The notes: generated by a model not told the origin, from the sequence alone. Shown: positions 1,675 through 46,335, counted from the stretch's first letter. The stretch is 64,000 nt of DNA from Rhodothermales bacterium (GCA_965262785.1 OZ253559.1:923571-987570); one strand, 5' to 3'. Program-made: numbers and translations.

Positions 1675-2865
1675 CTACCGATGGCCAATGGGTACCACGC
1701 TCAAGTGGCGCGGCCCGCTGTAGCGAGCCCGCGGCCGGATCAGCCGATTCTCGTGCCACTGCTCCAGCAGATGCGCCATCCAGCCGGTGATGCGGCTCAT
1801 GGCGAAGATCGGCGTATAGAGGTCTACTTCAATGCCGAGCATGTAGTACATGGGCGCGGTGTAGAAGTCCACATTCGGGTTGAGGCCCTTCTCCGTTTCC
1901 ATCACATGCCGAATCTCCTCGCAGATCTTGCCCCACTTCTCTGCGTTACGCTCCTTGGCCAAGGCCATCATCATCTCACGCAGAATGGTGGCACGCGGGT
2001 CAATGACCCTGTAAACTCGATGCCCAAACCCCATAATGCGCTCCTTGCGTGCAAGCCTTGTGCGCACATAACTGGCCGGACTCTCGCCGGACTGATCGAT
2101 CTGGAGCAGCATCTTCATCACGCGCATGTTGGCACCACCGTGGAGTGGGCCGGAAAGGGCGCCGATAGCCCCCGAAGCCGCCGCATATACATCTGCCAAC
2201 GTGGAGCCGACAACGCGACCCGCGAAGGTGGACGCGTTAAGGCTGTGCTCAGCATGTAAGACGAGCGCGGTGTCCAAGGTCTTCTCGGCCTGCGGTCCTG
2301 GCCGCTCGCCGCTTAGCATGTATAGAAAGTTGAATGCGGTGGATCCGGTTCTAAGCGGCGTGATGGGGTCCTTACCGCAGCGCAGACGCGCAAAGGCCGC
2401 AACAATAGCCGGAATCCTGGCGGTCAGCCGAATTGACTTGCGGAGGTTGGCCTCTGCGCTCATGTCGCCCGCTTCCCCGTCAAAGTGGGCCAGCGCCGAA
2501 ACACATGTGCGCATTGCCGCCATAGGCGCCGCGTCTTCGGGCGTCAGCCGCAAGATGTCCAGTACCATTGGCGGCAGAATTCGCTCTGCACACAGGCGTG
2601 CCTCAAGGTCTTCCAGCTGGCTTCGCGTTGGCAGCGCGTCGCGCCAAAGCAGGTAAGCCACCTCTTCAAATGAGACATGGCGTGCCAGCGTGCGGATATC
2701 GTAACCCCGGTAGACAAGCTCGCCCTTTTGGCCGTCAATAAAGCAAATCGACGACTCCAGTGCGACTACGCCCTCTAGACCAGGTGTGCTTCGTGCCGGA
2801 GCAGCATTGCGCTTGATGCCATCACGTGCGGGGGCGGTCGAAAGGGCCATTGAGGAAGTGCACAC
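1675..2865 (-). CDS. gltA: Citrate synthase
   Basis: 396-aa ORF with citrate synthase signatures: GPLHGGAN and IMGFGHRVYRVIDPRA, plus a C-terminal SRITGWMAH block. The start could instead be the internal Met at 2850. Confidence 0.9.
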   Translation of the reverse strand: MCTSSMALSTAPARDGIKRNAAPARSTPGLEGVVALESSICFIDGQKGELVYRGYDIRTLARHVSFEEVAYLLWRDALPTRSQLEDLEARLCAERILPPMVLDILRLTPEDAAPMAAMRTCVSALAHFDGEAGDMSAEANLRKSIRLTARIPAIVAAFARLRCGKDPITPLRTGSTAFNFLYMLSGERPGPQAEKTLDTALVLHAEHSLNASTFAGRVVGSTLADVYAAASGAIGALSGPLHGGANMRVMKMLLQIDQSGESPASYVRTRLARKERIMGFGHRVYRVIDPRATILREMMMALAKERNAEKWGKICEEIRHVMETEKGLNPNVDFYTAPMYYMLGIEVDLYTPIFAMSRITGWMAHLLEQWHENRLIRPRARYSGPRHLSVVPIGHR

Positions 2866-29220: not shown

Positions 29221-29772
29221 CTATGGCGTGCTTGGCGGCGGATCGCTGTGCGCATTGCAGCGGCTGCGGTATGTCACAAAGGAACAGCCATCACCAGGTT
29301 CTTCGGCGACCCATTCGTACCGAGTTCCAATGAGGTGCGCGTAGGGCGGAAAGTACGTGTCCCCTTCGAAGGTTCCCTCTACCAGCGTGAGCTCAAGCCG
29401 GTCGGCCAGCAGCAGCGCTTCGGTGTACGGGCGCGCACCGCCGCCAATGAAGACAATGGACTCGTTTCTTGCGGCCCGGATAGCCTGGGGCAGTGAAGAA
29501 AAGGTCTCTACGTCGGGAAAGTCCGGGACCGGGCCCCGGGACGTGAGCACAACCATGCGGCGCTCAGGCAACGGCTTGCCAAACTGGCGGATGATGCTTT
29601 CGAACGTTGTGCGACCCACGATTAGCGCGTGCCCGCGCGTGAGCCACTTGAAGCGCTTCAAGTCGTCCCTGAGCGGGGGCCAAGGCAAATTGTGGCCGCG
29701 TCCTATCAGGCGATCTCGCGAGGCGAGGGCAGCGATGATAACGGTTTCCGGGCGCGTGGAGGCGGAAGGCAT
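29221..29772 (-). CDS. folA: Dihydrofolate reductase
   Basis: 183 aa. IIAALASRDRLIGRGHNLPW..LRDDLKRFKWLTRGHALIVGRTTFESI, and GGGARPY. Confidence 0.9.
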   Translation of the reverse strand: MPSASTRPETVIIAALASRDRLIGRGHNLPWPPLRDDLKRFKWLTRGHALIVGRTTFESIIRQFGKPLPERRMVVLTSRGPVPDFPDVETFSSLPQAIRAARNESIVFIGGGARPYTEALLLADRLELTLVEGTFEGDTYFPPYAHLIGTRYEWVAEEPGDGCSFVTYRSRCNAHSDPPPSTP

Positions 29773-29777
29773 CCAAC

Positions 29778-30818
29778 CTACATGTCTTCCCAGTACTGCT
29801 TCGGCATATCCTCTGCCAGCGCGAGAGCTCCTTCCGCACCGACAAAGAGCGGATCTTCCACGGTCGTGATTCGAAAGCTGCCATAGTCTGCCAAGGCCGT
29901 TGCGATGGCATCAGCTAGGCCCTTGGTCTGGCTGCCGCCGCCAGCCAGGTAGATGTTCTTATGCACGCGTTCTTGCAGCATGGGCTCGTAGCGCCCGACC
30001 AGGTCGATTAGCGTTTCGGCTATGGGTTCCACCAGGCTTTCGCACGCCTGGGTGACCTCGGAAGTGATGTCGTGCTCGACGAACTTGCCAGATACCGGCA
30101 TCATTACCTTGATGCGACCCTTAGCTTTACCAACCCTGCCGAACTCTTCCTTAAATTGGCGAATCATTGTTGCACTCATCCGCGTGTCCGGGTACTTCTC
30201 GCGCAAGAGGTCACATAGCTGCTTGTCGACAAAGTCGCCTGCGCTAAGTAGCGACCGCTGGTCATCTTCGGAGGGCATGGTCCCGTGCATGATGCAGAAG
30301 TCGACCGTGCCCGCACCAATGTCAACTACACAGGCGTTACTCAGGGCGCCCAAGCGGTACGCCACTGCAAACGGTTCGGAGACGACCATGAGCGTGTCTG
30401 CGTGTTCGCGCGCAGCTTCACGGATGGCCAGCTTGTTTACGTTCAGCGCTTCGGCCGGGACCCCGATGGCAGCGTATATTTTCTGACCCTTGAGCGGTTT
30501 GGCCAGCTGGATAAGGTGGTGAATCAGCTGCTTGACAGCTTCCTCGTCGCGCTGCACACCATCGCGTATCACGCCAAACTCCAGCGGGCGTACCAGGTTC
30601 ACCGAGAGCCGGTGTTTTATCGCCTCTTCGCCGAAGATGATGTCTTTGCCCAGCATTTTGCGCGCGATGAAGTCTTTGGGCCAGCCCACATAGCTGTACT
30701 CCCAGTGCCGCTGTCCGTTATTGGCTGCGACAGCACTTCGCGAAGTGCCGAGGTCGATGCCGATGCGCAGGACTTCCGGAGCCTGCTTTTCGTTGTTACC
30801 CGAGCTGTTGGTAGCCAT
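29778..30818 (-). CDS. MamK-family actin-like ATPase
   Basis: Actin/Hsp70 fold motifs: IGIDLGTS, VSEPFAVAY, VVDIGAGTVDF, YLAGGGSQTKGLA. From my memory of Magnetospirillum MamK it also shares VGWPKDFIARKMLGKDIIFGEEA (MamK: VGYPKDVIGLKLLGRPYVVGDEA) and the C-terminal DP.F.GAEGALALAEDMPKQYW (MamK: DPTFDGCRGALRLAEELPPQYW). The ATG at 30818 gives 346 aa, which is MamK-like in length. The track start at 30866 is a TTG. Confidence 0.8.
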   Translation of the reverse strand: MATNSSGNNEKQAPEVLRIGIDLGTSRSAVAANNGQRHWEYSYVGWPKDFIARKMLGKDIIFGEEAIKHRLSVNLVRPLEFGVIRDGVQRDEEAVKQLIHHLIQLAKPLKGQKIYAAIGVPAEALNVNKLAIREAAREHADTLMVVSEPFAVAYRLGALSNACVVDIGAGTVDFCIMHGTMPSEDDQRSLLSAGDFVDKQLCDLLREKYPDTRMSATMIRQFKEEFGRVGKAKGRIKVMMPVSGKFVEHDITSEVTQACESLVEPIAETLIDLVGRYEPMLQERVHKNIYLAGGGSQTKGLADAIATALADYGSFRITTVEDPLFVGAEGALALAEDMPKQYWEDM

Positions 30819-30984
30819 TTCCAAGGCCTTATAGTGATGGGTTTGGCGCGCCTGTTCAGCGATCAACCACGTGTCTGCTGCTGTAAGTTACAAAGTCTTG
30901 GGCGTTTTCGGAAGGGGTTTATATACTTACCTGTAACTTTTCTCCGATTGAGTCGTATGAGGATTAGACCAGATCGGGGGAATC

Positions 30985-31920
30985 ATGACAGGGCCAGGCA
31001 GATCACACCGCAAGGGAATCACACTTTTAGCGTTGGCACGGCGGTATCCGAGCGAGGGGGCCGCCCGGGAATGGTTTGAGGCCATCTATTGGCCGGAAGG
31101 CCGCTTTTGCCCGCAATGCAGGGGCACCGATACCTATGCTTGCCCGAAACAGACCATGCCGTACCGTTGCCGCACGTGCCGCAAGCGGTTCAGTGTTCGG
31201 ACGGGAACGGTGCTGCAAGCCTCACGGTTGCCATTGCTCAAGTGGACCTACGCCATTTATATTGAAATGACCTCGCTCAAGGGCGTATCCAGCATGAAGC
31301 TTCACCGCGACCTGGGCATAACGCAAAAGTCGGCGTGGTTCATGCTGCAACGGATTCGGGAGGCGTTCGTGCCGTTAGCCGCCGCCGCGTTTGAAGGCCC
31401 GGTTGAAGCCGACGAGACGTATGTTGGGGGCAAGGAGGCCAACAAGCACGCGCACAAGAAGCTGAAAGCGGGACGCGGAACGGTTGGCAAGACGGCTGTA
31501 GCGGGGCTGAAAGACCGCGGTACCGGCCAGATTCGGGCCAAGGTCGTTGAGGACACAAGCGGCCCGACGTTGAAGCAGTTCGTGTATAACCACACCGAAA
31601 TCGGCGCAACGGTCTACACGGATGACGCCACCGCTTACAAGGGCATGATCGGTATGGAGCATGAGACGGTCAAACACAGCGTGGGCGCATGGGTCAACGG
31701 CATGGCCCACACGAACGGGCTGGAGTCGTTCTGGGCCACGCTGAAGCGGGCGTACCATGGCGTGTACCACAGAATGAGCGCCAAGCACTTGCAGCGGTAC
31801 GTGCACCAGTTTGCGCAAAAGCACAACGTCCGGGACATGGACACGCTCGAACAAATGCAGCACGTGGTGGCCGCACTGGCAGGGCGGCGGCTTATGTACA
31901 AAGATCTGATTGAGAAATGA
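30985..31920 (+). CDS. IS1595-family (ISXO2-like) transposase
   Basis: 311 aa. N-terminal zinc-ribbon (CPQCRG..YRCRTCRKRF) and the ISXO2-like DDE domain (VEADETYVGGKE...VYTDDATAYKG). Confidence 0.9.
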   Translation: MTGPGRSHRKGITLLALARRYPSEGAAREWFEAIYWPEGRFCPQCRGTDTYACPKQTMPYRCRTCRKRFSVRTGTVLQASRLPLLKWTYAIYIEMTSLKGVSSMKLHRDLGITQKSAWFMLQRIREAFVPLAAAAFEGPVEADETYVGGKEANKHAHKKLKAGRGTVGKTAVAGLKDRGTGQIRAKVVEDTSGPTLKQFVYNHTEIGATVYTDDATAYKGMIGMEHETVKHSVGAWVNGMAHTNGLESFWATLKRAYHGVYHRMSAKHLQRYVHQFAQKHNVRDMDTLEQMQHVVAALAGRRLMYKDLIEK

Positions 31921-34697: not shown

Positions 34698-34958
34698 ATG
34701 GATCCCAATCTGCACCAAAAGAAGGGCATTGAGCACCTGAACAAGGTTTTGCGGTACGCTCCGATGGTTGCCACGGACGGTAAGGCCACCATACACCTAA
34801 CCCATGAGGACTGGCATGTTGTCGCCGACACGCTCTTCCGAATGAATACGTCGCGGAAGGCGTTGCCGGAGGCAATTGTGGACTACCGCCTAGGGCCGCA
34901 GCACAGGAGCATCGAGCTTGTTACCACTGCGCTGGAAATCACGGTTGAGATGTTCTAG
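34698..34958 (+). CDS. Hypothetical 86-aa protein
   Basis: ATG preceded by an AT-rich stretch (tagagtaaaatatactattcg). Composition looks protein-like, not Arg-rich. No family recognised. The stop overlaps the receptor gene stop convergently. Confidence 0.3.
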   Translation: MDPNLHQKKGIEHLNKVLRYAPMVATDGKATIHLTHEDWHVVADTLFRMNTSRKALPEAIVDYRLGPQHRSIELVTTALEITVEMF

Positions 34959-37234
34959 AACAGGAGCCGGTACGTTAGCCGGATGTCGCGTCCTGGCAGT
35001 GGCACGATATCCTTCAAGAATGAAGTGTGCGGCCGGCCTATCACGTTGGTCAGGTTGCGACCCTGCAGCGAAATCACGTGGCCCGTGTTGCCGGGAAAAA
35101 GCTTGTACTGCGCCGACGCGCCCAAGTCCATGTATCCGTCAGTGGACGTCTCGAACTGCGCAACACGTTTCTGGGCGCTTATAGACTTCATCGAAACGGC
35201 GAGCTTGAGCGCGCCCACCTCGTAGGACAGCTTGCCACCTATCCTCATGGGTGGAATGCGCGGCAGAGGCTCATCGCTGTCTGTCCGATGCGCGCGCGTA
35301 TAGTCACTCCAAATGCGTACGGCCGCATGCTGGTTGCCAATGTGAAACAGCTCACCTTCGACCTCGACCTCAAAGCCAGTGAAGGATGCTTCACCTTGGG
35401 ACACGCGAAACACGGCCTCCCCGTCCTCCCGCTCCTGCGTGTGGCGCAGGTAGATAAAGTCTGAGTACCGGTTCGAAAAGCCCGAAGCACTCGCTTCAAA
35501 CCTTTCGTGGTGCACATGAACGGAGGCATCAAGGCTGAATGCCATTTCAACGTTCAGGTCTGCATTACCAATCTCAAAGGCCTGCGTTGCCACGTGATGG
35601 CCATTGGCATAGAGTTCGCCAGGGTGTGGAATCTTGATGTTCCTGGCTGACCTAAGGGCCATGGTCAGCATTTCAGAGTACTGATAATTGACACCGACGC
35701 CTGCAGAAACGCCCGAGAACGTCCGCTCTCTGCCTATGTCGGGGGTGAGACTGGCACGCTCATAACGCAGGCCGCCTTCCAGACTGAAGGGCCCAGCGTC
35801 CAGTCTTTCCAGCAGGAAGGCGGCGAACCTGTTGCTTTCGGAGCCGGGCATAAACGCCTCGTGGCCAGCGAGCACCAGCATTCGCTGATCCATTTGCAGG
35901 CCCGCCACACCGTGAAAACCACTTGAAAGCGCATGATCAATTTCCAGCCGGCCCTCCACCACATCATTGTCAAAGGTGGTTCCCACGTCACCGTGTTCCA
36001 GCTCATCATGCGCGTAGTCACTAGACCCAAGACGGAAGCGCACGCCATGTAGAAACTCCCGGTCCGCGCGCCAGAGTCCTTCAAAATCGACGGAGACTTT
36101 TGCCATGTCAACACGGACACCTTCTTCTTCCTCCTCCTCTTCGTGTCCATTCCCATCGTCGTGATCGTCGTCGTGGTCTTCATGCCCCGGAAGTCCGTAT
36201 TTGGTGCCATGCAGCGTAACTGCTGCACCAACGAATCCCCAAGATTCAATGTAAGACAGTCCGCCAAAGCCACTATTCAGCGTAACGTTGCTGTTGACGA
36301 TAGTGTTCTCATCGTGATCTTCATGCCCGTCAATACTGCCTGCGGGCACTTTGAATTCTTCCGTGGCCCGGGAGAGGCCCCCAAGGGTCCAGGCAATATT
36401 GCCACGGGTGCCACGAAGCTTCAGGGCACCTGTGCGCCCTAGCGAAACGGAGTTCAGACGACCTGTAAAGACGCCCGTGATGGGGCTGGTGGGCTTCTCG
36501 TTTGGTACGCGACCGTCCAGCACATTGATAACGCCTCCAATCGCGTTACTTCCGTAAAGAAGCGTGGCCGGTCCCCGTATAAACTCAATGCGTTCCGCCA
36601 GTAGTGCCTCGACTGCCGGTGCGTGGTCCGGGCCGATATCTGATGCGTCTGCGTTGCTCAGTCCTTGTTGAAGAATGCTGACGCGGTTGCCGCCAACCCC
36701 GCGAATAACCGGTCGGCTTGACCCCGGACCAAAGTAAGTTGAATTGATGCCAACCTTGCCTTTGAGGCTTTCCCCCAAACTCGCTGCACTGGCATCTACG
36801 AGATCCTGGTAGGACAGTGCGTCGGCGGGACGAACGGCTTCGGAACGCGTCATTTCTATGGGTCCAGCCGATACGACGACCTCGTCAAGACCGACATGCG
36901 CCAGCACCTCGAAGGTTACGTCTGTGGTTTGGCCGCTCTCAACGCTAACTTCGAGGATGCTGCGTCCCCATCGTGGACTCAGCGCCTCCAAGAGATGTGG
37001 TCCGCTCCGAAGATCGTTAAACTCAAAGGCGGCTGCCTCATCGACTGCAGTCAGAATTCCCTTAGCAACAAGGCGAACTTCTGCGTCGATGGCAAGGTCG
37101 CCGCTGGAATTGTATACGACGCCTTGAATTCGCCCGGTGTCCTGGGCCTGGGCGGCTGTCGATGCGGCAAAGAAAAGGCCAACGGCAACTGCGACTCGGC
37201 GGGCGCATTCGTAAAATCGGGTTCTGCTGTGCAT
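34955..37234 (-). CDS. TonB-dependent receptor, ZnuD-like, with His/Asp/Glu-rich loops (copy A)
   Basis: 759 aa. Signal peptide, N-terminal carboxypeptidase-regulatory-like domain, plug (RPVIRGVGGNRVSILQQG), C-terminal TonB-box-C ending ..RDIRLTYRLLF. Loop tracts GHEDHDENT and GHEDHDDDHDDGNGHEEEEEEEG. Confidence 0.9.
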   Translation of the reverse strand: MHSRTRFYECARRVAVAVGLFFAASTAAQAQDTGRIQGVVYNSSGDLAIDAEVRLVAKGILTAVDEAAAFEFNDLRSGPHLLEALSPRWGRSILEVSVESGQTTDVTFEVLAHVGLDEVVVSAGPIEMTRSEAVRPADALSYQDLVDASAASLGESLKGKVGINSTYFGPGSSRPVIRGVGGNRVSILQQGLSNADASDIGPDHAPAVEALLAERIEFIRGPATLLYGSNAIGGVINVLDGRVPNEKPTSPITGVFTGRLNSVSLGRTGALKLRGTRGNIAWTLGGLSRATEEFKVPAGSIDGHEDHDENTIVNSNVTLNSGFGGLSYIESWGFVGAAVTLHGTKYGLPGHEDHDDDHDDGNGHEEEEEEEGVRVDMAKVSVDFEGLWRADREFLHGVRFRLGSSDYAHDELEHGDVGTTFDNDVVEGRLEIDHALSSGFHGVAGLQMDQRMLVLAGHEAFMPGSESNRFAAFLLERLDAGPFSLEGGLRYERASLTPDIGRERTFSGVSAGVGVNYQYSEMLTMALRSARNIKIPHPGELYANGHHVATQAFEIGNADLNVEMAFSLDASVHVHHERFEASASGFSNRYSDFIYLRHTQEREDGEAVFRVSQGEASFTGFEVEVEGELFHIGNQHAAVRIWSDYTRAHRTDSDEPLPRIPPMRIGGKLSYEVGALKLAVSMKSISAQKRVAQFETSTDGYMDLGASAQYKLFPGNTGHVISLQGRNLTNVIGRPHTSFLKDIVPLPGRDIRLTYRLLF

Positions 37235-37270
37235 TAAATCTATCCGGCTGGACCACCCGCCAGAGTAAAT

Positions 37271-37687
37271 CTATGCCGTGCTTAGCGCAAGAATACCCGG
37301 CGGCGGCCATGAATGGGCATGTTCAGAGTTTACGGTATTCGCCGCCGGAGGAGCCCGTATAGGCCGCTGCGTGAGAACCGAGTGTACCGCGGCTATGAGT
37401 GGCGCCGAGGCTATGCGCGTTTCGAAGGCCCAGATTTCGGTATTCCGGAGCCCAATCTGATATTCGTCCACGTCACGTCGGCAAAGCAGACAATCGTCCT
37501 CAGCTAGAAACTCAAAGTCAGGATGCCAGCCACTATGTGTGTGGTCGCAGTCGCCACTGTAGTGCGACGCCAAGCGGAGCCCGTGATGTACGAGGTGAAC
37601 GGAGGGCGAAACTGTGCCTCCCACGAGGAACGCCACGAGAAGAACCGTGGCTCTCTTACGGACTGTATGGACGAAAGCTAGTTGCAT
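37271..37687 (-). CDS. Small membrane-anchored Cys/His-motif protein (copy A, 138 aa)
   Basis: I trimmed the track ORF (to 37804) to the ATG at 37687, which matches its paralog in length. One N-terminal TM segment, then VHLVHHG..LASHYSGDCDHTHSGWHPDFEFLAEDDCLLCRRD. It lies 36 nt upstream of receptor copy A. Conservation with 40620..41039 supports it being coding. Confidence 0.6.
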   Translation of the reverse strand: MQLAFVHTVRKRATVLLVAFLVGGTVSPSVHLVHHGLRLASHYSGDCDHTHSGWHPDFEFLAEDDCLLCRRDVDEYQIGLRNTEIWAFETRIASAPLIAAVHSVLTQRPIRAPPAANTVNSEHAHSWPPPGILALSTA

Positions 37688-38222
37688 TGACTTCTGATCA
37701 AAAGCTTCCAGAATCAAGTAGCAGGAAAATGCCCATACCACAGGCAAACGGAATACAGGGCGCAAGTTCCATGTCTCGGCTGAATCACCTTTCCCATACT
37801 CCATGTGCTTTCACCGAATTGACAGCGGCATGTTTCCGGCGAGGTGGTCGGTTGCAGACCGAAATTCCACATTATGGGGTGAACCTTCGGCAGAGCATGG
37901 GCGTCCACTGATCACTATGAGGGTCGGACTGCTGTGGGCGCCTGGCGCGCGGCCCGACTGAGGACGGAGGTTGCCCTGCGACCTGTCGTGTGAGGGCAGG
38001 CATTGAGCCCGCAAATAGCGTCTTGCGAAATGCATCGACGGAACCAAGGGGCGCAAGGTCACAGCGCAACTGATCAATGGTGACCAGCATGCCGCCGTGT
38101 GGCCGACCATTTGCACAGCTGCATCTCATCAGACTCTGCCCGAGATGATCATTTAGCGATTCCGTGAGCAGCGGTACCCGGGCACGAGGTCTGTTTCCCC
38201 TGGGCTGCAACCCACTGATGTT

Positions 38223-40574
38223 CTAGAACAGAAGTCGGTATGTCAGCCGGATATCCCGCCCCGGCAGTGGAACGAGATCCTTCAGGAATGAAGTATGCGG
38301 CCGGGCAACGGCATTGGTCAGGTTGCGACCCTGCAGGGAAATCACGTGGCCCGTGACGGTTTGGAAGAACCGGTATTGAATGGCCGCGCCCAAGTCTATA
38401 TAACTGTCGGTAGTTTCCTCGAATTGTGCGACACGCTTTTGTGCGCTTACGGACTTGATTGAGGCGCTGAATTCCAACGAGCCGGTGTCAAAGGTCATTT
38501 CGCCACCGACTCTAAGTGGCGGGATCCGCGGCAGCGGCTCGTCATTGATGGACCGCTGCGCGCGCGTATAGTCACTCATGAGGCGCAAGGCCACATGGTG
38601 ATAGCCCTCATGATACAACTCGAATTCGGCTTCTACCTCGAAACCTCTGAAGGAGGCCTCCCCCTGCGACACGCGATACACCGCCGCTCCGTCCTCTGTG
38701 TCCTGCGTGTGACGTAGATAGATGAAGTCTGAGTACTGGTTGGAGAAAACCGAAGCCGTGGCTTCAAACCGATCGTGATGCACATGGGCGGACAAGTCAA
38801 CGCTTAAGGCCGTTTCGACGCCAAGGTCTTCGTCGCCGACCTCGAACGCTTGGGTAGCAACATGGAGGCCGTGGGCATAGAGTTCGCCCGGGTGCGGAAA
38901 TTTGATGCTCCTAGCCACGCCAATCGACACGGACACGTCATCGGTGTACTGATAGTTGACGCCTCCCCCAACAGAAACAGCGGAAAAGGTCCGATTTCTT
39001 CCCTGGTCCGGCGAGATGTTGGCACGCTCGTAGCGCAAGCCGCCTTCCAGTCCAAAGGCGCCCGTGTTCAGCCGCTCAAGCAGGAACAGGGATGCCCGGC
39101 TGGTTGAGGATCCGGGCATGAATGCCTCGTGGCCTGTCAGCGTCAGTGTTCGCCGGTCCAACTGCATGCCTACGACTCCGTTGAATCCAGCGGCAAGGAC
39201 ATGATCCATCTCCAGGCGGCCCTCAATCAAATCATTTTCGAAGGTGGTTCCCACTTCACCGCCTTCTAACTCATCGTGCGCGTAGGCTGAGGAGCCAAGT
39301 CGAAAGCGCAGGCCTCGCAGAAAATCCCCGTGCGCGCGCCAGTGCCCTTCCAGGTCAACGGATATCTGCCCCATGTCGACGCGAACATCTTCATCTTGTT
39401 CTTCGTGACCATGACCCTCATCATCTTCTTCCTCCTCCTCTTCATGTTCGCCTTCTTCTTCGTGGTGCTCCCTGTGCCCCGGAAGCCCGTACTTAGTGCC
39501 GTGCAGCGTAATGGCTGCGCCGATGTAGCCCCAGGACTCAACATAGGACAGTCCTGCAGAGCCTCTGTTCAGCGAGACATTGCTGTTTGCGATTGAATTC
39601 ACAACTTCATCCTGATCATTATCGTTGTCGTGACTATTGCCATTTTCATCGTCGTGGTCCTCTTCCTCTACGATGCTTCCCTTGGGTACTCTGAATTCTT
39701 CCGTTGCCCGTGTCAGGCCGCTAAGGGCCCAGGCAAGGTTACCACGGCCACCGCGCAGCTTGAGCGCACCCGTGCGACCCCGCGAAACGGAGCTGAGACG
39801 CCCTGTAAACGTGCCCGAAATGACGCTGGTGGACTCTTCGCTCGGAACGCGGCCATCGTACAGGTTAACCACGCCACCGATTGCGCTGCTGCCATAGAGC
39901 AGTGTGGCCGGACCGCGAATGATTTCGATGCGATCAGTCAAGAGTGCCTCAACTGCCGGGGCGTGGTCCGGGCTGATGTCCGACACATCCGCAACCGTGA
40001 GGCCCTGCTGCAAGACGCTTACCCTATTGCCCCCTACGCCGCGAATGATCGGCCGACTGGAGCCTGGCCCGAAATAGGTAGCTGTGATTCCGACCTTATT
40101 TCTTAGGGTTTCGCCCAAGCTCCCCTCGCTGGCCTCAACCAGGTCCTGATGCGACAGTGCGTCGGCAGGTTGAACGGCACCTGAACGCGTCACCGCCACC
40201 GGTCCTGCTGACACGACGACTTCTTCCAGATCGACATGCACTACGACTTCAAGGGTGACCTCACTGGTCTGACCGTCTTTGACGGATACCTCCAGAATGC
40301 CACGCCCCCATCGTGGGCTGACTGCCTCCAGGATGTGCGCTCCATCAGGCAGATAGCTAAAAGAAAAGCTGGCTTCTTCGTCCACTTTGGTTAGGAGTCC
40401 CATCCCTACGACGCGGACCTCCGCATCCAGGGCCAGGTCACCGGCGGTGTTGTAGACAATGCCCTGAATATGCCCACCTTTCTGAGCCCAAGCGGTATTG
40501 GTACAGGCAGCGATTAGCGGAATGGCAAGCGCGACGCAAAAAAGTGCGCCGGTATATTGATTTTTGCAAAGCAT
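38223..40574 (-). CDS. TonB-dependent receptor, ZnuD-like, with expanded His/Asp/Glu-rich loops (copy B)
   Basis: 783 aa. Collinear paralog of 34955..37234. Loop tracts EEEDHDDENGNSHDNDNDQDE and GHREHHEEEGEHEEEEEEDDEGHGHEEQDED. Same ending RDIRLTYRLLF. Confidence 0.9.
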   Translation of the reverse strand: MLCKNQYTGALFCVALAIPLIAACTNTAWAQKGGHIQGIVYNTAGDLALDAEVRVVGMGLLTKVDEEASFSFSYLPDGAHILEAVSPRWGRGILEVSVKDGQTSEVTLEVVVHVDLEEVVVSAGPVAVTRSGAVQPADALSHQDLVEASEGSLGETLRNKVGITATYFGPGSSRPIIRGVGGNRVSVLQQGLTVADVSDISPDHAPAVEALLTDRIEIIRGPATLLYGSSAIGGVVNLYDGRVPSEESTSVISGTFTGRLSSVSRGRTGALKLRGGRGNLAWALSGLTRATEEFRVPKGSIVEEEDHDDENGNSHDNDNDQDEVVNSIANSNVSLNRGSAGLSYVESWGYIGAAITLHGTKYGLPGHREHHEEEGEHEEEEEEDDEGHGHEEQDEDVRVDMGQISVDLEGHWRAHGDFLRGLRFRLGSSAYAHDELEGGEVGTTFENDLIEGRLEMDHVLAAGFNGVVGMQLDRRTLTLTGHEAFMPGSSTSRASLFLLERLNTGAFGLEGGLRYERANISPDQGRNRTFSAVSVGGGVNYQYTDDVSVSIGVARSIKFPHPGELYAHGLHVATQAFEVGDEDLGVETALSVDLSAHVHHDRFEATASVFSNQYSDFIYLRHTQDTEDGAAVYRVSQGEASFRGFEVEAEFELYHEGYHHVALRLMSDYTRAQRSINDEPLPRIPPLRVGGEMTFDTGSLEFSASIKSVSAQKRVAQFEETTDSYIDLGAAIQYRFFQTVTGHVISLQGRNLTNAVARPHTSFLKDLVPLPGRDIRLTYRLLF

Positions 40575-40619
40575 GATGTCTGTCTGTCTGCGCCGCTGCC
40601 AGAGGACATCAGTACTGCG

Positions 40620-41039
40620 CTAAGCGTACAGCAAAGTAGCGGGCGCCCCGGCGGCGGCCGTGAATTGGAGTCTCACTGTGTGTGCTGACATGACTACCGG
40701 GGGGCCGCGAATAGACTTCGGCGAATGACGGACGAGCGCCACTGTGCCGGCCGGCGCCTTTGAAGCGCCTGCTTCGCCATGGAAGACCGCTGTTGACGCC
40801 AGCATAACCTGTGAAACGTCCAGGTCGCGCTGGCAGAGAAGGCAGTCTTCCTCGTCTAGAAACTCAAAGTCCGGATGCCAACCACCGTGCGTGTGGTCGC
40901 AGTCGAGACCATAATGCGCCGCAAGTTGATAACCGTGGTGGACGCGGTGCACGACCGGAAGCACGGTGCCGCCCAGCAGAAACGTCACCAGAAGGACGGC
41001 CGCACTCCTACAGACGGTATGGGTGTTTCCCAGACGCAC
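40620..41039 (-). CDS. Small membrane-anchored Cys/His-motif protein (copy B, 139 aa)
   Basis: GTG start at 41037-41039. TM segment AAVLLVTFLLGGTV, then VHRVHHGYQLAAHYGLDCDHTHGGWHPDFEFLDEEDCLLCQRD. It lies 45 nt upstream of receptor copy B. Confidence 0.6.
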   Translation of the reverse strand: MRLGNTHTVCRSAAVLLVTFLLGGTVLPVVHRVHHGYQLAAHYGLDCDHTHGGWHPDFEFLDEEDCLLCQRDLDVSQVMLASTAVFHGEAGASKAPAGTVALVRHSPKSIRGPPVVMSAHTVRLQFTAAAGAPATLLYA

Positions 41040-41044
41040 GAATT

Positions 41045-41070
41045 TCAGATAAGGAGCTCAGATAAGGAGC
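41045..41070. repeat. Perfect 13-bp tandem direct repeat (tcagataaggagc x2)
   Basis: Read directly: 41045..41057 equals 41058..41070. It lies 6 nt upstream (minus-strand sense) of the GTG start of the small Cys/His protein. A GGATCC-gat-GGATCC pair follows at 41083..41097. Confidence 0.9.
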
Positions 41071-41193
41071 AACAAGGCATGCGGATCCGATGGATCCCAC
41101 TTGAAAAGTATTACGAATCGCATGAGACAGGTTCCGATTCGCTAGTGAAATTCTTCCGCGTGTCGAATAACTTACGAAGACAATCGACACGGA

Positions 41194-42405
41194 ATGGACC
41201 CAGCGATCTTACTGGTTGGCACGCTAGACACCAAGGGGCGTGAGTTTGCCTTTGCACGCGAGCTGATAAATGCGCGTGGGATTCCCACGACCCTGATGGA
41301 TGCCGGTGTGCTCGGCGCGCCCGGCGCGGAGCCGGACATCGGCGCGGAGGCCGTCGCCCGCTCGGGTGGAGGGAGCCTTGAGGTCCTCAGGGCAGGTGGC
41401 GACCGTGGCGCAGCGCTGGATGTCATGACACGCGGCGCGTGTGCGCTGGCCGAAGAGCTGTACGGCCAACGGCGGCTCGCCGGGGTCCTGGGACTTGGAG
41501 GAAGCGGGGGCACGGCGATTGCTACCGCAGTCATGCGCGCGTTGCCGGTGGGCGTGCCCAAGGTCATGCTTTCCACCCTGGCATCCGGCGATGTGGGGCC
41601 GTATGTGGGGGCAATTGATATCGCGATGATGCATTCGGTGGTGGACATCGCGGGTCTGAACAGGATTTCGCGACCCATAATCGCCAATGCGGTGGGGGCG
41701 GTCTGCGGAATGGTGGAGCAGGATGTGCCAGCGAGCATGGACAAGCCGCTGATAGCGGCGACGATGTTTGGCGTCACGACGCCATGCGTGATGCGCCTGC
41801 AGCAGGCGATGGCGGAGGAAGGCTACGAGCTTGTCGTTTTCCACGCGACCGGCACCGGCGGACGTGCCATGGAAGCCCTGATCGATAGCGGGTTCTTCGT
41901 CGCGGTGGCGGACGTCACGACCACTGAATGGTGCGATGAAGTGGTGGGCGGCGTGCTGAGTGCGGGCCCGGATCGTTTGGGGGCCGCCGCGAGGAGCGGC
42001 ATCCCCCAGGTAGTGTCGTGTGGAGCGCTTGATATGGTGAACTTCCGCGGGCCGGACACCGTGCCAGTGCAGTTTCAGGCGCGCAACCTGTTCAAGCACA
42101 ACGCCAACGTGACGCTCATGCGCACGAGTCCGGCGGAGTGCCAGGTGATAGGAGAGCGCATTGCCCGGCAGATCAGCCGCGCAAAAGGGCCGGTCAAGCT
42201 TCTGCTTCCGCTACAGGGCGTGAGCGCAATTGACAAGGAGGGCAAGGCGTTTCATGACCCGGCGGCCGATGCGGCGCTCTTTGGTGCGCTGCGTAAGAAT
42301 GTGGCGGCGAGCGTGGAAGTGGTGGCGCTCGACCTTCACATCAACGATGAGGCCTTTGCGCTTTCCCTTGCGGAACACCTATTGGCACTCTTGGCCGCAA
42401 CCTGA
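41194..42405 (+). CDS. UPF0261 / Tm-1-like ATP-binding domain protein
   Basis: 403 aa. ILLVGTLDTKGREFAF.., MLSTLASGDV, ATMFGVTTPCV, VFHATGTGGRAMEAL and GIPQVVSCGALDMVNF are the UPF0261 family blocks as I remember them. Confidence 0.8.
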   Translation: MDPAILLVGTLDTKGREFAFARELINARGIPTTLMDAGVLGAPGAEPDIGAEAVARSGGGSLEVLRAGGDRGAALDVMTRGACALAEELYGQRRLAGVLGLGGSGGTAIATAVMRALPVGVPKVMLSTLASGDVGPYVGAIDIAMMHSVVDIAGLNRISRPIIANAVGAVCGMVEQDVPASMDKPLIAATMFGVTTPCVMRLQQAMAEEGYELVVFHATGTGGRAMEALIDSGFFVAVADVTTTEWCDEVVGGVLSAGPDRLGAAARSGIPQVVSCGALDMVNFRGPDTVPVQFQARNLFKHNANVTLMRTSPAECQVIGERIARQISRAKGPVKLLLPLQGVSAIDKEGKAFHDPAADAALFGALRKNVAASVEVVALDLHINDEAFALSLAEHLLALLAAT

Positions 42406-42511: not shown

Positions 42512-42919
42512 ATGCAAAGTATTGGTAGCTGCAAGGTCGTCTATGGCGCCGATGTGGAAACGCTTGTATTCGACTGGGGCACGATCCGGATTCTGGGGGA
42601 GCCTGCGCTTACGGGGGGCACCACGATGACCTTTGCTGAGGTCGAAGTGCTGCCTGGCACGGGCCATGAACGTCATAAGCACGACGACGCGGATGAGGTC
42701 ATCTACGTCATTGAGGGGGAAGCGCTGCAGATGCTGGATGACCTGCCGCCGGTGCCAGTGGGTCCAGGTGCAAGCATATTCGTTCCGCGGGGTACCTTCC
42801 ATGGAACGCAGAACACGGGCCAGAACGTGCTGCGACTGGTAGTCGTCTACGCCCCTGCGGGCGAAGAAAAGGTACTGAGGGCGCTGCCAGGCGTGCGGCT
42901 CAAACCTGCCATACGATGA
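42512..42919 (+). CDS. Cupin domain protein
   Basis: The ATG at 42512 gives 135 aa. Cupin motif 1 is GHERHKHDDADEVIYVIEG and motif 2 is GTFHGTQN. The track ORF start at 42230 lies inside the previous gene. Confidence 0.7.
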   Translation: MQSIGSCKVVYGADVETLVFDWGTIRILGEPALTGGTTMTFAEVEVLPGTGHERHKHDDADEVIYVIEGEALQMLDDLPPVPVGPGASIFVPRGTFHGTQNTGQNVLRLVVVYAPAGEEKVLRALPGVRLKPAIR

Positions 42920-45900
42920 GACGCATACTTTTTTTGCTCATTTTTTGCGCTGCCTGCCAAGCGCCGCAGCCAGATGACCGGGTACCCCGCCGCATTGAGG
43001 TACTGTTTTTGGGGCACGAGAGCCAGCACCACGATGCCCAGACCTATGCGCCACTGCTGGCGTCGGCATTGGCCACGCACGGCATCAATATCTCCTACAC
43101 CAACGAGGTGTCATCGCTGAACAGGGAAACCCTTCAGCACTACGACGCGCTCCTGCTGTATGCCAACCACGACTCCATCACGAAGTCTCAGGAGCGGGCA
43201 TTGCTCGACTTTGTCGCCTCCGGCAAGGGCTTCTTGCCGGTACACGCTGCCAGCTACTGCTTCCGAAACTCGGACGCATTCGTGCAACTGGTAGGTGCGC
43301 AGTTTGAGAGCCACGGCACGGGCACGTTTGTTGCCGACATCGTGGCGCCGGACCACGCAGCAATGGTAGGCGTGGCGGCATTTGAGACATGGGACGAGAC
43401 GTATGAGCATACGCTGCACGGGGAGGACCGTACGATCCTGATGGAGCGCCGGGAAGGTGAGCATGCTGAGCCTTGGACCTGGACGCGCACGCACGGCAAG
43501 GGACGCGTATTTTATACGGCCTACGGACACGACGAACGCACGTGGAACAGCCCTGGGTTCCACGCACTGATGCGCCGCGGAATCCTGTGGGCGGTAGGTG
43601 ATCCTGTGCGGGCTTTGGCTGAAGCCTACGAAATAGCAGATCTGGGGTACATCCCGCACGACAGCATTCCCAACTATGAGCGGCGGGATCCGCCGCCGAT
43701 GTTCCAGTTGCCGCTGGGTCCGGAAGCCTCACAGCGGCACATTCAGATCCCGCCCGGCTTTTCACTGGAGGTCTTTGCTGCCGAGCCTGACATAGTGAAC
43801 CCTATGGCGATGGCCTGGGATGATAAAGGCCGTCTCTTTGTGATCGAAACAGTTGATTATCCCAATGCACGCAAGGACTGGCCCGATGGTGAAGACAGGA
43901 TCAAAATCCTGGAGGATACAGATGGCGACGGGCGGGCCGACACGGTAAAGGTGTTTGCCGATGGGTTAAGCGTCCCGACCAGCCTGACCTACGCCAAAGG
44001 CGGCTGGGTTGTGTCGCAGGCTCCAGACATGCTTTTTTTGAAGGATACCGACGGAGATGACCGCGCGGATGTGCGCGAGGTGCTCTTTACAGGCTTCGGC
44101 ACGTACGACACCCACGCGGGCCCGTCAAACCTGCGGTACGGCATTGACAACTGGATATGGGGCACGGTGGGGTACGCCGGCTTCAGGGGCGCTGTCGGCG
44201 CGGATTCTTTCCGTCTGGGTCAGGGAGTCTACCGCTTTTCGCCGGCAGGCGAACAGCTCGAACCCATAGCGACATTTACCAACAACACGTGGGGTCTGGG
44301 ATTCTCGGAGACATTCGACGTATTTGGTTCTACGGCCAACAACGAGCACAGCGTTTTTGTGGCCATCTTTGATCGCTACTACGCCGGGGTGCGGGGCCTT
44401 ACGGGCGATGGAAAGGTCAAGATTGATGGTCACTACGCCATTCGACCGGTAACGAAGAACATCCGCCAGGTTGATGTCTGGAACGGTCTCACGGCAGCGG
44501 CGGGCCACAGCCTTTACACTGCAAGAGACTTTCCGGAGGAATACTGGAATCGTATTGCTTTTGTCAGCGAGCCGACTGGGCATCTGCTGCATCAGGCTAT
44601 TGTTGAGCCCAGCGGCGCAGGCTATGCGGAGCGGGATGGTTGGAACCTCCTGGCAAGTAGCGACGAATGGGTTTCACCGGTTCAGGCGGAGGTGGGGCCG
44701 GATGGTGCAGTATGGATCCTCGATTGGTACAACTTCATTGTGCAGCACAACCCCACGCCGGAAGGCTTTGGCACCGGCGCAGGCAACGCGCACATCAATA
44801 TGTTGCGCGACAAGCAGCATGGTCGCATCTACCGGCTTGCCTACAAAGGCGCGGCGCCGGAGCCGTATCCCGAACTTAGCGGGGCCGAGGACCTGGTACA
44901 GGCGCTAAAGCACACGAACATGTTTTGGCGCACGGTGGCGCAGCGCCGAATCGTAGAGGGCGAGATGGTAGCTGCAGGGCCGGGCCTTGTCAGGCTTATC
45001 AAGTCGCGCGGAATGGATGAAGTCGGCCTAAACAGTCCCGCCGTGCACGCGCTATGGACGTTGCGCGGTCTGGGCCTTTTGAACGGCTCCGATCAGGCAG
45101 CGCTTTCGGCGGCGTACGGCGCCCTAGCGCATCCGGCTTCAGGAGTCCGGAAGAATGCCTTGCGCGTGGTGCCCCGCGACGCCGCATCGCTGCAGGCAAT
45201 CATGGATTCGGGCACCTTGGAAGACGAGGATCTTGGCGTTCGCCTTGCAGCGCTGTTAGCAGTGAGCGAAATGCCCCCGTCGGATGCAGCCGGACGGCGC
45301 CTCTACGCGATAAGCACTCACGAAGTAGCGAGGGAGGATGTTTGGCTTTCGGAGGCGCTGTACATTGCGGCCAGCGCGCATCGGGACGGCTTCCTTGCTG
45401 CCTATGCGGAAGATGAAGGGCAAGTCGACGCTGACGCGTTTGCTACTGCAGACTGGTCCGGCATGGACCTTGACGACAGCGACTGGCGGACCATGACGCT
45501 CCCCGTGGCATGGCGCCAAACCGAGCATCTGCAGTCCTTTGACGGCGTGGTTTGGTTCAGAAAGGAGGTGACACTGCCGGCCACCACGCACGCCCTATCG
45601 CTGGGCCTTGGCGGGATTTACGACAGCGATGTGGCGTACGTCAACGGGACGGTAGTCGGGGCATCCAAGAATGCATATGCCACCAAGCGGGCCTATTCCG
45701 TACCGCAGTCAGTCCTTCGCGAAGGGCGCAACGTGATTGCCATTCGCGTAGAAGACATCTTCGGAAATGGAGGTTTTCGGGGCGAACCTGAGGACTTGCA
45801 CCTGCGTGGCGGGGGCTTGGACATGCCCTTGGCCGAGGTATGGCGATACAAGGTTGAAACCGAGTATCCGGGCGGCAAGAAGGCCGACCTTAGCAGCCGC

Positions 45901-46335
45901 ATCCCGTTGGCGGCCCAGTTTGCACAGAGGCATCAGGAAGGCGCCGCCGGCGAAGAGGAAGACATTGCTGTATCTCAGGAGGTGGCGCTTTCGGTCTTGC
46001 CGGGTCTTTTGCGGTTTGATATGCCATCGTTTACGGTAACGGCTGGCACCATCGTGCGACTGACCTTCACCAATCCGGGTGACATGCCGCACAATACCGT
46101 GTTCATTGCGCCGGGCAGCACAGATGCTGTGGGGATGGCCGCGGACCGGCTGACCGCCGGTGATTACGTGCCGGACATGGAGGCGGTGCTCTTTGCTACG
46201 CCGATGCTGGATCCTGGCGGATCGGCCTCTAGAGTATTTGAGGCACCGGCGGAGCCGGGCGACTATCCGTACCTCTGCACCTTTCCCGGGCATTGGCGTC
46301 TGATGCAGGGTACGATGATTGTGACTGCCCCGTAG
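42916..46335 (+). CDS. Multidomain exported protein: ThuA-like + membrane-bound-dehydrogenase beta-propeller domain + HEAT repeats + jelly-roll domain + C-terminal cupredoxin
   Basis: 1139 aa with a lipoprotein-like signal (LLIFCAAC). ThuA blocks (LLLYANHD.., GKGFLPVHAA.., GRVFYTAYGH). Dehydrogenase-domain blocks (PPGFSLEVFAAEPDIVNPMAMAWDDKGRLFV, DGDGRAD). HEAT-like repeats lie at about aa 690-800. The C-terminal type-1 copper ligand pattern is H...C-x4-H-x4-M (MPHN ... YLCTFPGHWRLMQG). Confidence 0.8.
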   Translation: MRRILFLLIFCAACQAPQPDDRVPRRIEVLFLGHESQHHDAQTYAPLLASALATHGINISYTNEVSSLNRETLQHYDALLLYANHDSITKSQERALLDFVASGKGFLPVHAASYCFRNSDAFVQLVGAQFESHGTGTFVADIVAPDHAAMVGVAAFETWDETYEHTLHGEDRTILMERREGEHAEPWTWTRTHGKGRVFYTAYGHDERTWNSPGFHALMRRGILWAVGDPVRALAEAYEIADLGYIPHDSIPNYERRDPPPMFQLPLGPEASQRHIQIPPGFSLEVFAAEPDIVNPMAMAWDDKGRLFVIETVDYPNARKDWPDGEDRIKILEDTDGDGRADTVKVFADGLSVPTSLTYAKGGWVVSQAPDMLFLKDTDGDDRADVREVLFTGFGTYDTHAGPSNLRYGIDNWIWGTVGYAGFRGAVGADSFRLGQGVYRFSPAGEQLEPIATFTNNTWGLGFSETFDVFGSTANNEHSVFVAIFDRYYAGVRGLTGDGKVKIDGHYAIRPVTKNIRQVDVWNGLTAAAGHSLYTARDFPEEYWNRIAFVSEPTGHLLHQAIVEPSGAGYAERDGWNLLASSDEWVSPVQAEVGPDGAVWILDWYNFIVQHNPTPEGFGTGAGNAHINMLRDKQHGRIYRLAYKGAAPEPYPELSGAEDLVQALKHTNMFWRTVAQRRIVEGEMVAAGPGLVRLIKSRGMDEVGLNSPAVHALWTLRGLGLLNGSDQAALSAAYGALAHPASGVRKNALRVVPRDAASLQAIMDSGTLEDEDLGVRLAALLAVSEMPPSDAAGRRLYAISTHEVAREDVWLSEALYIAASAHRDGFLAAYAEDEGQVDADAFATADWSGMDLDDSDWRTMTLPVAWRQTEHLQSFDGVVWFRKEVTLPATTHALSLGLGGIYDSDVAYVNGTVVGASKNAYATKRAYSVPQSVLREGRNVIAIRVEDIFGNGGFRGEPEDLHLRGGGLDMPLAEVWRYKVETEYPGGKKADLSSRIPLAAQFAQRHQEGAAGEEEDIAVSQEVALSVLPGLLRFDMPSFTVTAGTIVRLTFTNPGDMPHNTVFIAPGSTDAVGMAADRLTAGDYVPDMEAVLFATPMLDPGGSASRVFEAPAEPGDYPYLCTFPGHWRLMQGTMIVTAP

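Follow-up and report, generated by a model that had tools for sequence, protein, structure and literature searches.

Leader peptides that carry RAPP or RGPP and are encoded upstream of TonB-dependent receptors are already known, with CruR as their paradigm. CruR (Bp2923, DUF2946) of Bordetella pertussis is a copper-responsive upstream regulator of the TonB-dependent transporter BfrG, and its CXXC motif, its C-terminal RAPP motif and the spacing between the two control the downstream transporter via regulated translation arrest (Roy et al. 2022, PMC9426467); according to the same authors, no riboswitch for Cu or Zn is known (PMC9426467). Here we describe a locus in a 64-kb stretch of DNA from a Rhodothermales bacterium (GCA_965262785.1 OZ253559.1:923571-987570; the whole stretch of 64,000 nucleotides (nt) is referred to as the window), where two tandem modules, A and B, both on the minus strand, each consist of a small open reading frame (ORF; small-A and small-B) followed by a TonB-dependent receptor that resembles the zinc receptor ZnuD. 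The small ORFs are probably nascent-chain metal sensors that control, in cis, the ZnuD-like receptor encoded behind them.

In CutF of Rhodobacter capsulatus, arrest is combined with a stem-loop by which the ribosome-binding site of the next gene is masked, and CutF-like proteins are common in Bacteroidota, with TonB-type genes as frequent neighbours (Ozturk et al. 2023, PMC9973294). In the accessible parts of that paper, zinc does not appear in the main text, nor do Rhodothermales, zinc or ZnuD appear in the supplementary text. RAPP and RGPP are the most robust, EF-P-resistant arrest cores; they are reported to be strongly excluded from ordinary proteins and enriched in small exported proteins encoded upstream of TonB-dependent receptor genes (Fujiwara 2025, PMC12992588). 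The description of this TonB-associated class is purely statistical, with a link to copper through CruR and no mention of zinc (PMC12992588). The arrest peptides ApdA and ApdP and those resembling SecM monitor Sec/YidC pathways (Morici 2024, PMC10951233; Fujiwara 2024, PMC10987492), and in an engineered fusion of the ADR1a zinc finger to SecM, Zn-dependent folding of the Cys2His2 domain frees the arrest only at a sharply defined linker length (Nilsson et al. 2015, PMC4571824). Experimental proof of control by metal-sensing arrest peptides so far concerns copper only (CruR, CutF), and a literature search of incomplete coverage found no prior description that joins RAPP motifs, zinc and TonB-dependent receptors.

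Anatomy and selection of the small ORFs

The four ORFs of the two modules are:

34955..37234, minus strand: receptor A, 759 amino acids (aa), ZnuD-like TonB-dependent receptor
37271..37687, minus strand: small-A, 138 aa, putative arrest-peptide upstream ORF (uORF), paralogue of small-B
38223..40574, minus strand: receptor B, 783 aa, ZnuD-like TonB-dependent receptor
40620..41039, minus strand: small-B, 139 aa, GTG start, putative metal-sensing arrest-peptide uORF

The small ORFs are separated from their receptors by 36 nt (A) and 45 nt (B). The two receptors align end to end with 65% identity and 80% positives, and about 43 C-terminal residues are almost the same in both; small-A and small-B are 49% identical (E 3e-43), mostly within the first 70 residues. 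These figures bear out the original prediction, which a model had made from the sequence alone and which had placed two same-strand copies of a small ORF plus receptor at exactly these positions and with these gaps, had judged the receptors by eye to be two-thirds to three-quarters identical, and had remarked on their near-identical C-termini. Small-A can also be read as a longer ORF of 177 aa from 37804, and the 138-aa start at 37687 is favoured because the putative promoter of module A (see below) lies inside the longer variant. The similarity at the ends of the receptor genes includes a perfect 12-nt palindrome, TGTTCTAGAACA, which spans both stop codons (34951-34962 and 38219-38230) and occurs nowhere else in the window; considered as an operator, it was rejected, as in the orthologous locus of the closest relative (L004) it is kept only after receptor A, and it probably arises simply from conservation of the LLF-stop end.

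Neither small ORF matches any Pfam or NCBIfam model, even at E<=10, and an 'HYC_CC_PP' family, considered as a candidate, turned up neither in NCBIfam nor in the literature. A word-indexed search returned three relatives only and an exhaustive profile search of 1.84 billion representative proteins returned 54, none of which carries a cluster name; genomic loci of the family were collected by a scan seeded with alignment A1. Members share one architecture, namely a basic N-terminus and a hydrophobic helix (LLxxFxxGGxxxPxxHRVxHG), followed by CDHxxH, CxLCxR, a variable linker and IR[AG]PP. The top Pfam match of the relatives is DUF2946 (PF11162), found below its gathering score of 23.7 bits in 14 of 52 (best E 6.2e-4). 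The corresponding elements of the window are:

40830..40949, minus strand: sensor module of small-B, residues 31-70, with HRVHHG, DCDHTHGGWHP, an E/D run and CLLC (CLLC at 40833-40844)
40710..40832, minus strand: linker of small-B, 41 residues from CxxC to R, free in sequence and fixed in length
40698..40709, minus strand: putative arrest motif RGPP of small-B, which follows an Ile and does not vary in alignments A1 or A2
37481-37492 and 37346-37357, minus strand: CLLC and RAPP of small-A

The N-terminus has a net charge of +2 to +3 (+2 in small-B) followed by a 17-residue hydrophobic stretch (Kyte-Doolittle 1.9-2.4) and, judged by charge, hydrophobicity and the helix modelled by AlphaFold2 (AF2), is predicted to be an export signal or signal-anchor. 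The sensor module of both paralogues contains HxVHHG, DCDHTHxGWHP and CLLC (residues 66-69), its potential ligands being 11 His and 3-4 Cys. H31, C66 and P114 are invariant in 52 family members, and C69 is conserved in at least 90%. Across paralogues and orthologues, residues 31-70 show 75-82% amino acid identity and the nucleotide changes fall mostly at codon position 3 (e.g. 3/3/22 for positions 1, 2 and 3), which suggests that the module is translated and constrained as protein. For the linker (residues 71-110), amino acid identity drops to 12-25% and substitutions are spread across codon positions without bias (24/26/31), while 40 of 49 members keep a spacing of 41 residues between CxxC and R[AG]PP (range 40-43). 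The arrest motif is RGPP in 32 and RAPP in 17 of these 49, and in 33 of them the ORF stops exactly 3 residues past PP, tails of 14-27 residues being confined to the window's closest relatives. Such a tail is 24% identical between small-B and its L005 counterpart, with unbiased codon positions (13/16/13), and appears not to be constrained as protein. AF2 models a confident N-terminal helix (residues 3-43), a ligand-bearing helix-loop-helix (moderate confidence) and coil from residue 87 onwards.

Taken together, the pattern of conservation looks like that of a sensor, a ruler and an arrest motif, unlike that of a folded accessory protein. The original prediction had been unable to assign the small gene to any described system and had taken its product for a membrane partner of the receptor; its anatomy is that of the CruR/CutF class of metal-sensing, ribosome-arresting uORFs, and because only the sensor module is under protein-level selection the small protein is most likely a cis-regulatory leader, not a transport component.

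Among all stop-to-stop segments of at least 100 aa in the window, R[AG]PP occurs three times, two of them in the small ORFs. The third occurrence, at 29432-29443 on the plus strand, belongs to a 170-aa ORF with a GTG start that overlaps a 183-aa ORF on the opposite strand and is probably a non-coding frame. Two further readings of the small protein were considered and rejected: an anti-sigma factor of the ZAS type, as it has no H-x3-C-x2-C, no cytoplasmic N-terminal domain and no adjacent sigma gene, and a precursor of a ribosomally synthesised and post-translationally modified peptide (RiPP) or metallophore, as no modification enzymes are encoded nearby.

ZnuD-like receptors and their probable leaders

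The best NCBIfam model for both receptors is ZnuD (NF038289), which is matched over the full length with 314.1 bits (A) and 337.6 bits (B) and leads the next-best model by more than 200 bits. Because scores of 314-338 bits lie far under the curated cut-off of 950 bits, receptors A and B appear to be ZnuD-like relatives, not equivalogs. Neisseria ZnuD (4RDR, E 1e-51) is the only relative of the receptors in the PDB at E<=1e-10, and the receptor orthologues in L005 and L011 behave in the same way. Plug and barrel (PF07715 and PF00593) score well over their gathering thresholds in both copies, so that this part of the predicted domain organisation stands; the N-terminal carboxypeptidase-regulatory-like domain ascribed to both receptors is found as a sub-threshold match in copy A only (CarboxypepD_reg, 20.6 bits against a gathering score of 32.3). 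Insertions rich in His and acidic residues occupy the same two alignment positions in both receptors:

36308-36340 and 36119-36187, minus strand: His/acid insertions of receptor A
39597-39680 and 39387-39479, minus strand: His/acid insertions of receptor B

In a sequence alignment, the second of these insertions (residues of about 366-396 in B) falls beside the ZnuD segment DDDNAHAHTHS, and its position is kept in orthologues. The His/Asp/Glu runs at two shared positions from which a metal-type receptor had been predicted are thus seen in A, B and the orthologues in L004, L005 and L011, and the assignment itself agrees with ZnuD being the best model and the sole structural relative.

Leaders with the 41-residue spacing are directly followed, on the same strand, by a TonB-dependent receptor in 11 of 11 lineages (window A and B, L003, L005 (=L014), L011, L006-8, L009-10, L012-13, L040, L041 and L042), and the orthologous modules A and B of L004 show the same arrangement. 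These downstream receptors are either ZnuD-like with His/acid insertions or of a second subtype that lacks them (L006 type). The reverse test started from the receptors: an independent metagenome scan seeded with the receptor N-terminus yielded 25 ZnuD-like loci, of which 24 were usable. In 20 of the 24, an ORF on the strand of the receptor lies upstream of it and has R[AG]PP close to its stop, 73-236 nt before the receptor start. These ORFs fall into four or more sequence families, each of which has an N-terminal helix together with His/Cys motifs; some of the other ZnuD-associated small ORFs match DUF2946 weakly (13.7-18.2 bits). As most ZnuD-like loci in this metagenome sample carry an R[AG]PP leader, the arrangement is apparently widespread.

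The remaining 4 of the 24 loci have no R[AG]PP ORF. One of these leaderless loci, L020, has a divergent 139-aa gene (1778-2197, minus strand) with a winged-helix-like N-terminal part and a C-terminal CxxC, Fur/Zur-family-like by its look, and this candidate regulator fits leader and Zur control as alternatives. The original prediction that the pair forms a conserved unit holds for the family as a whole, its idea that the small gene is obligate for the receptor does not, given the leaderless loci and the several sequence families among the ORFs that are present. A leader that is common and not obligate fits a regulator rather than a transport subunit. Homologues of the small ORFs do stand beside related receptors, and the receptors do not fall in a non-metal clade, the two points on which the prediction had offered itself to be judged.

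Candidate RNA element, putative promoters and history of the locus

Between the PP codons and the start of the receptor gene there are 111 nt in A, 123 nt in B and 110-128 nt in L003, L005, L011 and L012, and this distance holds whether the ORF stops 4 codons past PP (L011, with an intergenic gap of 101 nt) or 24-27 codons past it; in loci of the L006/L009 type it is 75 nt. As this distance is constant despite the shift of the stop codon, the ORF in the clade of the window has been read through into a former spacer. Within the interval, three segments were delineated, the first of them (segment 2) by nucleotide conservation between A and B:

40646..40668, minus strand: segment 2 of module B, GC block past the PP codons of small-B, CCAATTCACGGCCGCCGCCGGGG, translated as A-A-A-G
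37296..37317, minus strand: segment 2 of module A, GC block past the PP codons of small-A, CCCATTCATGGCCGCCGCCGGG, translated as W-P-P-P-G
40583..40605, minus strand: segments 3 and 4 in the spacer of module B, CCTCTGGCAGCGGC / GCAGACAGA, able to form a hairpin immediately 5' of the receptor B start
37243..37265, minus strand: segments 3 and 4 in the spacer of module A, CTCTGGCGGGTGGTC / CAGCCGGA, able to form a hairpin 5' of the receptor A start

The 22-nt GC block, CC[C/A]ATTCA[T/C]GGCCGCCGCCGGG, is at least 85% identical between A and B at the nucleotide level, against 0.48 at neutral sites, and is read in different frames. The only other stretch of at least 85% nucleotide identity between the modules encodes DCDHTHxGWHPDFEF.

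Pairing was assessed with RNAalifold and with pair counts on seven loci from about four independent lineages. Helix 2:3 is paired in 97.6% of cells (slid controls 37-56%), with one compensatory change from C-G to U-A, and helix 3:4 in 91.8% (slid controls 28-41%); since they share columns, the two helices are mutually exclusive. On evidence that is thin, segments 2-4 resemble an expression platform of the attenuator type. Helix 1:2, which would pair the PP codons with the GC block, did no better than some slid controls, no Rfam family matched positions 34700-41400 at E<=1, and the composition after PP shows no strong bias of C over G (C 0.27-0.33, G 0.28). The read-out could be Rho-dependent or other termination control, sequestration of the receptor start region or translational coupling. 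With the ribosome placed at the stop codon, constraint folding raised the accessibility of the start region in 3 of 4 lineages (window A, L003 and L005).

Right after the leader stop, L006 (6364-6429, CCCTCACC-AAGAA-GGTGGG-TTTTC) and L009 (6364-6429, CCCCCACC-AAGGA-GGTGGG-TTTTC), both of the short-tailed subfamily, have a terminator-like hairpin with a U-run. This suggests transcription attenuation as the read-out there and platforms that differ between lineages, as the literature proposes.

Sigma factors of the extracytoplasmic function (ECF) group have a consensus of GGAAC at -35 and CGT at -10. The pattern GGAACN15CGTW has exactly two matches in the window, both on the minus strand and 60-96 nt upstream of the small ORFs, which we take, from this consensus, to be ECF-type promoters:

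41112..41135, minus strand: putative ECF-sigma-type promoter B, GGAAC-N15-CGTA, upstream of small-B
37747..37770, minus strand: putative ECF-sigma-type promoter A, GGAAC-N15-CGTT, upstream of small-A

GGAAC-N15-CGT[A/T] is also the only block common to the upstream regions of both paralogues, L004 and L005 (where it is given as TGAAAC-N15-CGTA). If this reading is right, each module is its own transcription unit, as each has its own motif. A check of the upstream regions for Zur/Fur-type operators had been proposed with the original prediction; an upstream alignment, an inverted-repeat scan and two consensus searches produced chance-level matches only, the Zur consensus sequences used being proteobacterial and Firmicute ones that may not represent the Rhodothermales Zur box, and the ECF-type motif was found instead. 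Searches of the minus strand for sigma-70 promoters and intrinsic terminators gave nothing useful.

Several smaller features lie around the promoters. A hairpin with a T-run, TGCCTGTGGTATGGGCA-TTTTCC (37730-37746, minus strand), is located just past the -10 element of promoter A, in the presumed 5' untranslated region (UTR) of small-A; it is the only terminator-like hairpin (37746..37730), such hairpins are fewer than in shuffled sequence, and it may therefore be a chance occurrence. Directly upstream of the GTG of small-B, a 13-nt sequence, GCTCCTTATCTGA, is perfectly duplicated in tandem (x2; 41045-41070, minus strand), which may alter the translation-initiation region of the leader, and the orthologous sequence of L004 has just one, diverged copy, GCTCCTGACCTGA. 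Between the start of the divergent UPF0261 gene (41194) and the promoter-B motif there is an inverted repeat, CGTGTCGA-N17-TCGACACG (41159-41191); it is identical in module B of L004 and absent upstream of module A, and it could serve as an operator or form a hairpin in the 5' UTR of the UPF0261 mRNA.

The closest genome is a Rhodothermales metagenome-assembled genome (MAG), OZ244626.1 (locus L004), with 91% nucleotide identity across the module and a shared duplication; its gene order of UPF0261, small-B and receptor B, small-A and receptor A, and thyA matches that of the window. One module is present in a second Rhodothermales MAG (L005, also seen as L014), and L011 has a single, syntenic module between UPF0261 and thyA. 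The whole unit of promoter, leader and receptor has thus been duplicated in tandem at a locus that is single-copy in a relative. The duplication is old, because identity between A and B at 4-fold degenerate sites is only 0.48 (chance 0.27). The spacer of about 450 nt between the modules was considered as a decayed 5' end of UPF0261, and no significant similarity was found.

The genes near the modules are thyA, an Amidase_3 gene, IS1595, UPF0261, a cupin gene and a ThuA-DUF7133-cupredoxin fusion, none of them a metal-uptake gene, and within 10 kb of the relative's locus there is no Zur, znuABC or ECF sigma gene. The fusion protein, at 42916-46335 on the plus strand and 2 kb from the modules, comprises 1139 aa with ThuA, DUF7133 and a C-terminal cupredoxin domain (plastocyanin/azurin-like); in the relative (L039), the region matching it is fragmented and lies beside a DDE_Tnp_1 transposase. 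An intact transposase of the IS1595 family (311 aa, 30985-31920, plus strand) adjoins a MreB/actin-like gene (29778-30866, minus strand), and in the relative the IS1595 copy is split into ORFs of 112 and 185 aa and thus decaying there.

Gene calls in OZ244626.1 omit the small-B orthologue (L039 6925-7263) and give the small-A orthologue a false N-terminal extension of 39 residues that runs over the promoter motif. Such leaders are probably under-annotated, being either missed or mis-started by gene callers.

Proposed mechanism and comparison with known systems

The leader would have four working parts: an export signal or signal-anchor, a His/Cys/Asp module of about 40 residues, a spacer of exactly 41 residues and the arrest motif IR[AG]PP. 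The ribosome would stall at R[AG]PP, at a point where the sensor module has just emerged from the exit tunnel. By analogy with CruR and ADR1a-SecM, metal binding would fold the module, pull on the chain and free the stall, and with no metal the ribosome would stay parked. Whether it is parked or freed would then select the 2:3 or the 3:4 pairing in the roughly 110-125 nt between PP and the receptor start, and this choice would set transcription read-through or translation initiation of the receptor, which would consequently be made when the metal is scarce. In the clade of the window, the ORF has lost its usual stop 3 codons past PP and reads into the RNA element.

From the receptor type and the His-rich set of ligands, the sensed metal is most likely Zn(II). 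A fuller version of this scheme, in which these leaders are the first natural zinc-sensing nascent peptides, Zn(II)-induced folding frees the stall, the RNA switch shuts off the receptor and such control, rather than Zur alone, is common for ZnuD-like receptors, is less likely, and we put it forward tentatively. On the zinc-sensing reading, leader control would be common for such receptors in environmental bacteria because 20 of 24 loci carry an R[AG]PP leader, and the extension of the ORF across the RNA switch in the clade of the window may have replaced control of termination by translational coupling.

A number of points weigh against a zinc-sensing arrest leader. Arrest, the identity of the metal and the polarity of the response are all drawn from sequence and analogy. 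CxxC is also a classical Cu(I) motif, and the family also precedes the receptor subtype that has no His-rich loops (L006 type), so the sensed metal need not be zinc. Compared with CruR, the spacing is 41 residues here and 45 there (where it is conserved within 1-2), R[AG]PP lies 24 (A) or 25 (B) residues from the stop instead of about 3, and the gap to the receptor is 36-45 nt instead of 162 nt; nor do small-A and small-B match DUF2946 even at E<=10. As to the RNA, covariation comes from about four independent lineages and a single compensatory pair, the single-sequence fold z-scores are weak (-0.09 and -1.69), and constraint folding with the ribosome on R[AG]PP left the receptor start region closed, with no clean thermodynamic switch.

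The leader might also be an arrest-peptide uORF whose signal is copper, as for CruR and CutF, or the redox state of the periplasm, read through CxxC, and not zinc; the receptors would then take up copper or a different ligand. CruR senses copper by its CxxC, every member of the class studied by experiment responds to this metal, and the family's occurrence before the non-ZnuD subtype would suit this explanation, as would the weak partial matches of the receptors to the copper-receptor model TIGR01778 and the cupredoxin-domain gene 2 kb away. Nevertheless, the ZnuD model scores about 250 bits better than the copper-receptor model and ZnuD is the only close structural relative; in sequence alignment the His/acid insertion falls at or beside the His-rich region of ZnuD, and a module dominated by His and Asp, with so few Cys, suits Zn(II). 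Copper or redox sensing is accordingly a minor but real possibility. That the leader instead monitors Sec- or signal recognition particle (SRP)-dependent insertion or export capacity, in the manner of SecM, VemP and ApdA, with its His and Cys residues incidental, is very improbable: the combination of an N-terminal export signal with R[AG]PP is indeed that of arrest peptides which monitor Sec/YidC (PMC10987492, PMC7897499), but the downstream gene encodes a metal receptor, not a Sec or YidC component, and the His/Cys/Asp module, with H31 and C66 invariant in 52 members, is better conserved than the signal sequence (75-82% against 50-57% identity).

The small protein might also act as such, as a stable metal-binding partner of the receptor that is anchored in the inner membrane and serves in the periplasm as chaperone or hand-over factor for Zn or Cu. 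Its N-terminal hydrophobic helix, the protein-level selection on the His/Cys/Asp module, the helix-loop-helix modelled by AF2 with moderate confidence and the strict linkage with receptors would all be expected of such a partner. It is improbable all the same, as linker and tail, which make up half of the protein, show no constraint on their sequence and are coil in the AF2 model, and the only conserved C-terminal features are the exact 41-residue spacing, which a chaperone role leaves unexplained, and the equally unexplained R[AG]PP, a motif reported to be strongly excluded from ordinary proteins (PMC12992588). Moreover, the paralogues differ in the frame in which the tail is read, most relatives stop 3 residues past PP, and many ZnuD-like receptors have unrelated R[AG]PP ORFs or none.

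What appears to be new is a sensor family that has no curated model and uses a 41-residue ruler, the association of this family, and of several further families of R[AG]PP leaders, with ZnuD-type receptors, and a leader ORF that reads through a conserved RNA element, with a paralogue pair that is frame-shifted across it. The sequences suggest that the device known from copper has been adapted to ZnuD-type zinc receptors at this locus and in its relatives. If true, the leaders would be the natural counterpart of the engineered zinc-finger/SecM force sensor and would add zinc to the ligands sensed by nascent chains; they would explain many zinc-receptor genes that have no recognisable Zur boxes, and would draw attention to a class of small ORFs that are overlooked by gene callers or given wrong starts. 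The paralogue pair, in which one copy is frame-shifted across a conserved RNA block, is a natural experiment that separates peptide-level from RNA-level constraint.

Among known systems, CruR shares with the window ORFs its place as the first gene of the unit, just upstream of a TonB-dependent receptor, its small size, export and largely unstructured prediction, and its CxxC and R-A-P-P type motif with rigid spacing between them. In contrast to CruR, the window ORFs have additional His-rich motifs (HxVHHG, DCDHTHxGWHP) and use RGPP besides RAPP, and their receptor is ZnuD-like, not BfrG- or OprC-like, in a different phylum (Rhodothermota).

CutF is likewise a small exported sensor with a Cys motif, a C-terminal Pro-rich stalling motif, a short intergenic region and a stem-loop near the downstream start; it differs in having CxxxC and a PP within its last 15 residues, and in turning on a multicopper oxidase when copper is present. 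By size, gap and N-terminus, the window ORFs agree with the definition of CutF-like proteins (138 aa with a gap of 36 nt in A, 139 aa with a gap of 45 nt in B, hydrophobic N-terminus), whereas small-B has no PP in its last 15 residues and small-A has PPP there only through the other-frame reading of the GC block.

The receptors resemble ZnuD/TdfJ of Neisseria (4RDR) over the full length of plug and barrel, and by sequence alignment a His/Asp-rich insertion falls at or beside the His-rich loop region of ZnuD. They differ in having about 100 additional residues at the N-terminus, a domain with weak resemblance to CarboxypepD_reg, and a second acidic/His insertion. Neisseria znuD is Zur-regulated, and no Zur box was found at the window receptors with proteobacterial and Firmicute consensus sequences.

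ApdA, ApdP and the SecM-like peptides have in common with the small ORFs an R-[A/G]-P-P core after Ile (cf. GIRAGP of SecM) in small secretory or membrane proteins, the studied members differing in that they monitor Sec and YidC. The engineered ADR1a-SecM fusion also places a small Cys/His domain at a fixed distance from an arrest peptide; it is artificial, has a linker optimum of 24-26 residues and folds inside the tunnel, whereas the element in the window is natural, with a 41-residue linker and a module of about 40 residues that follows a membrane-targeting helix.

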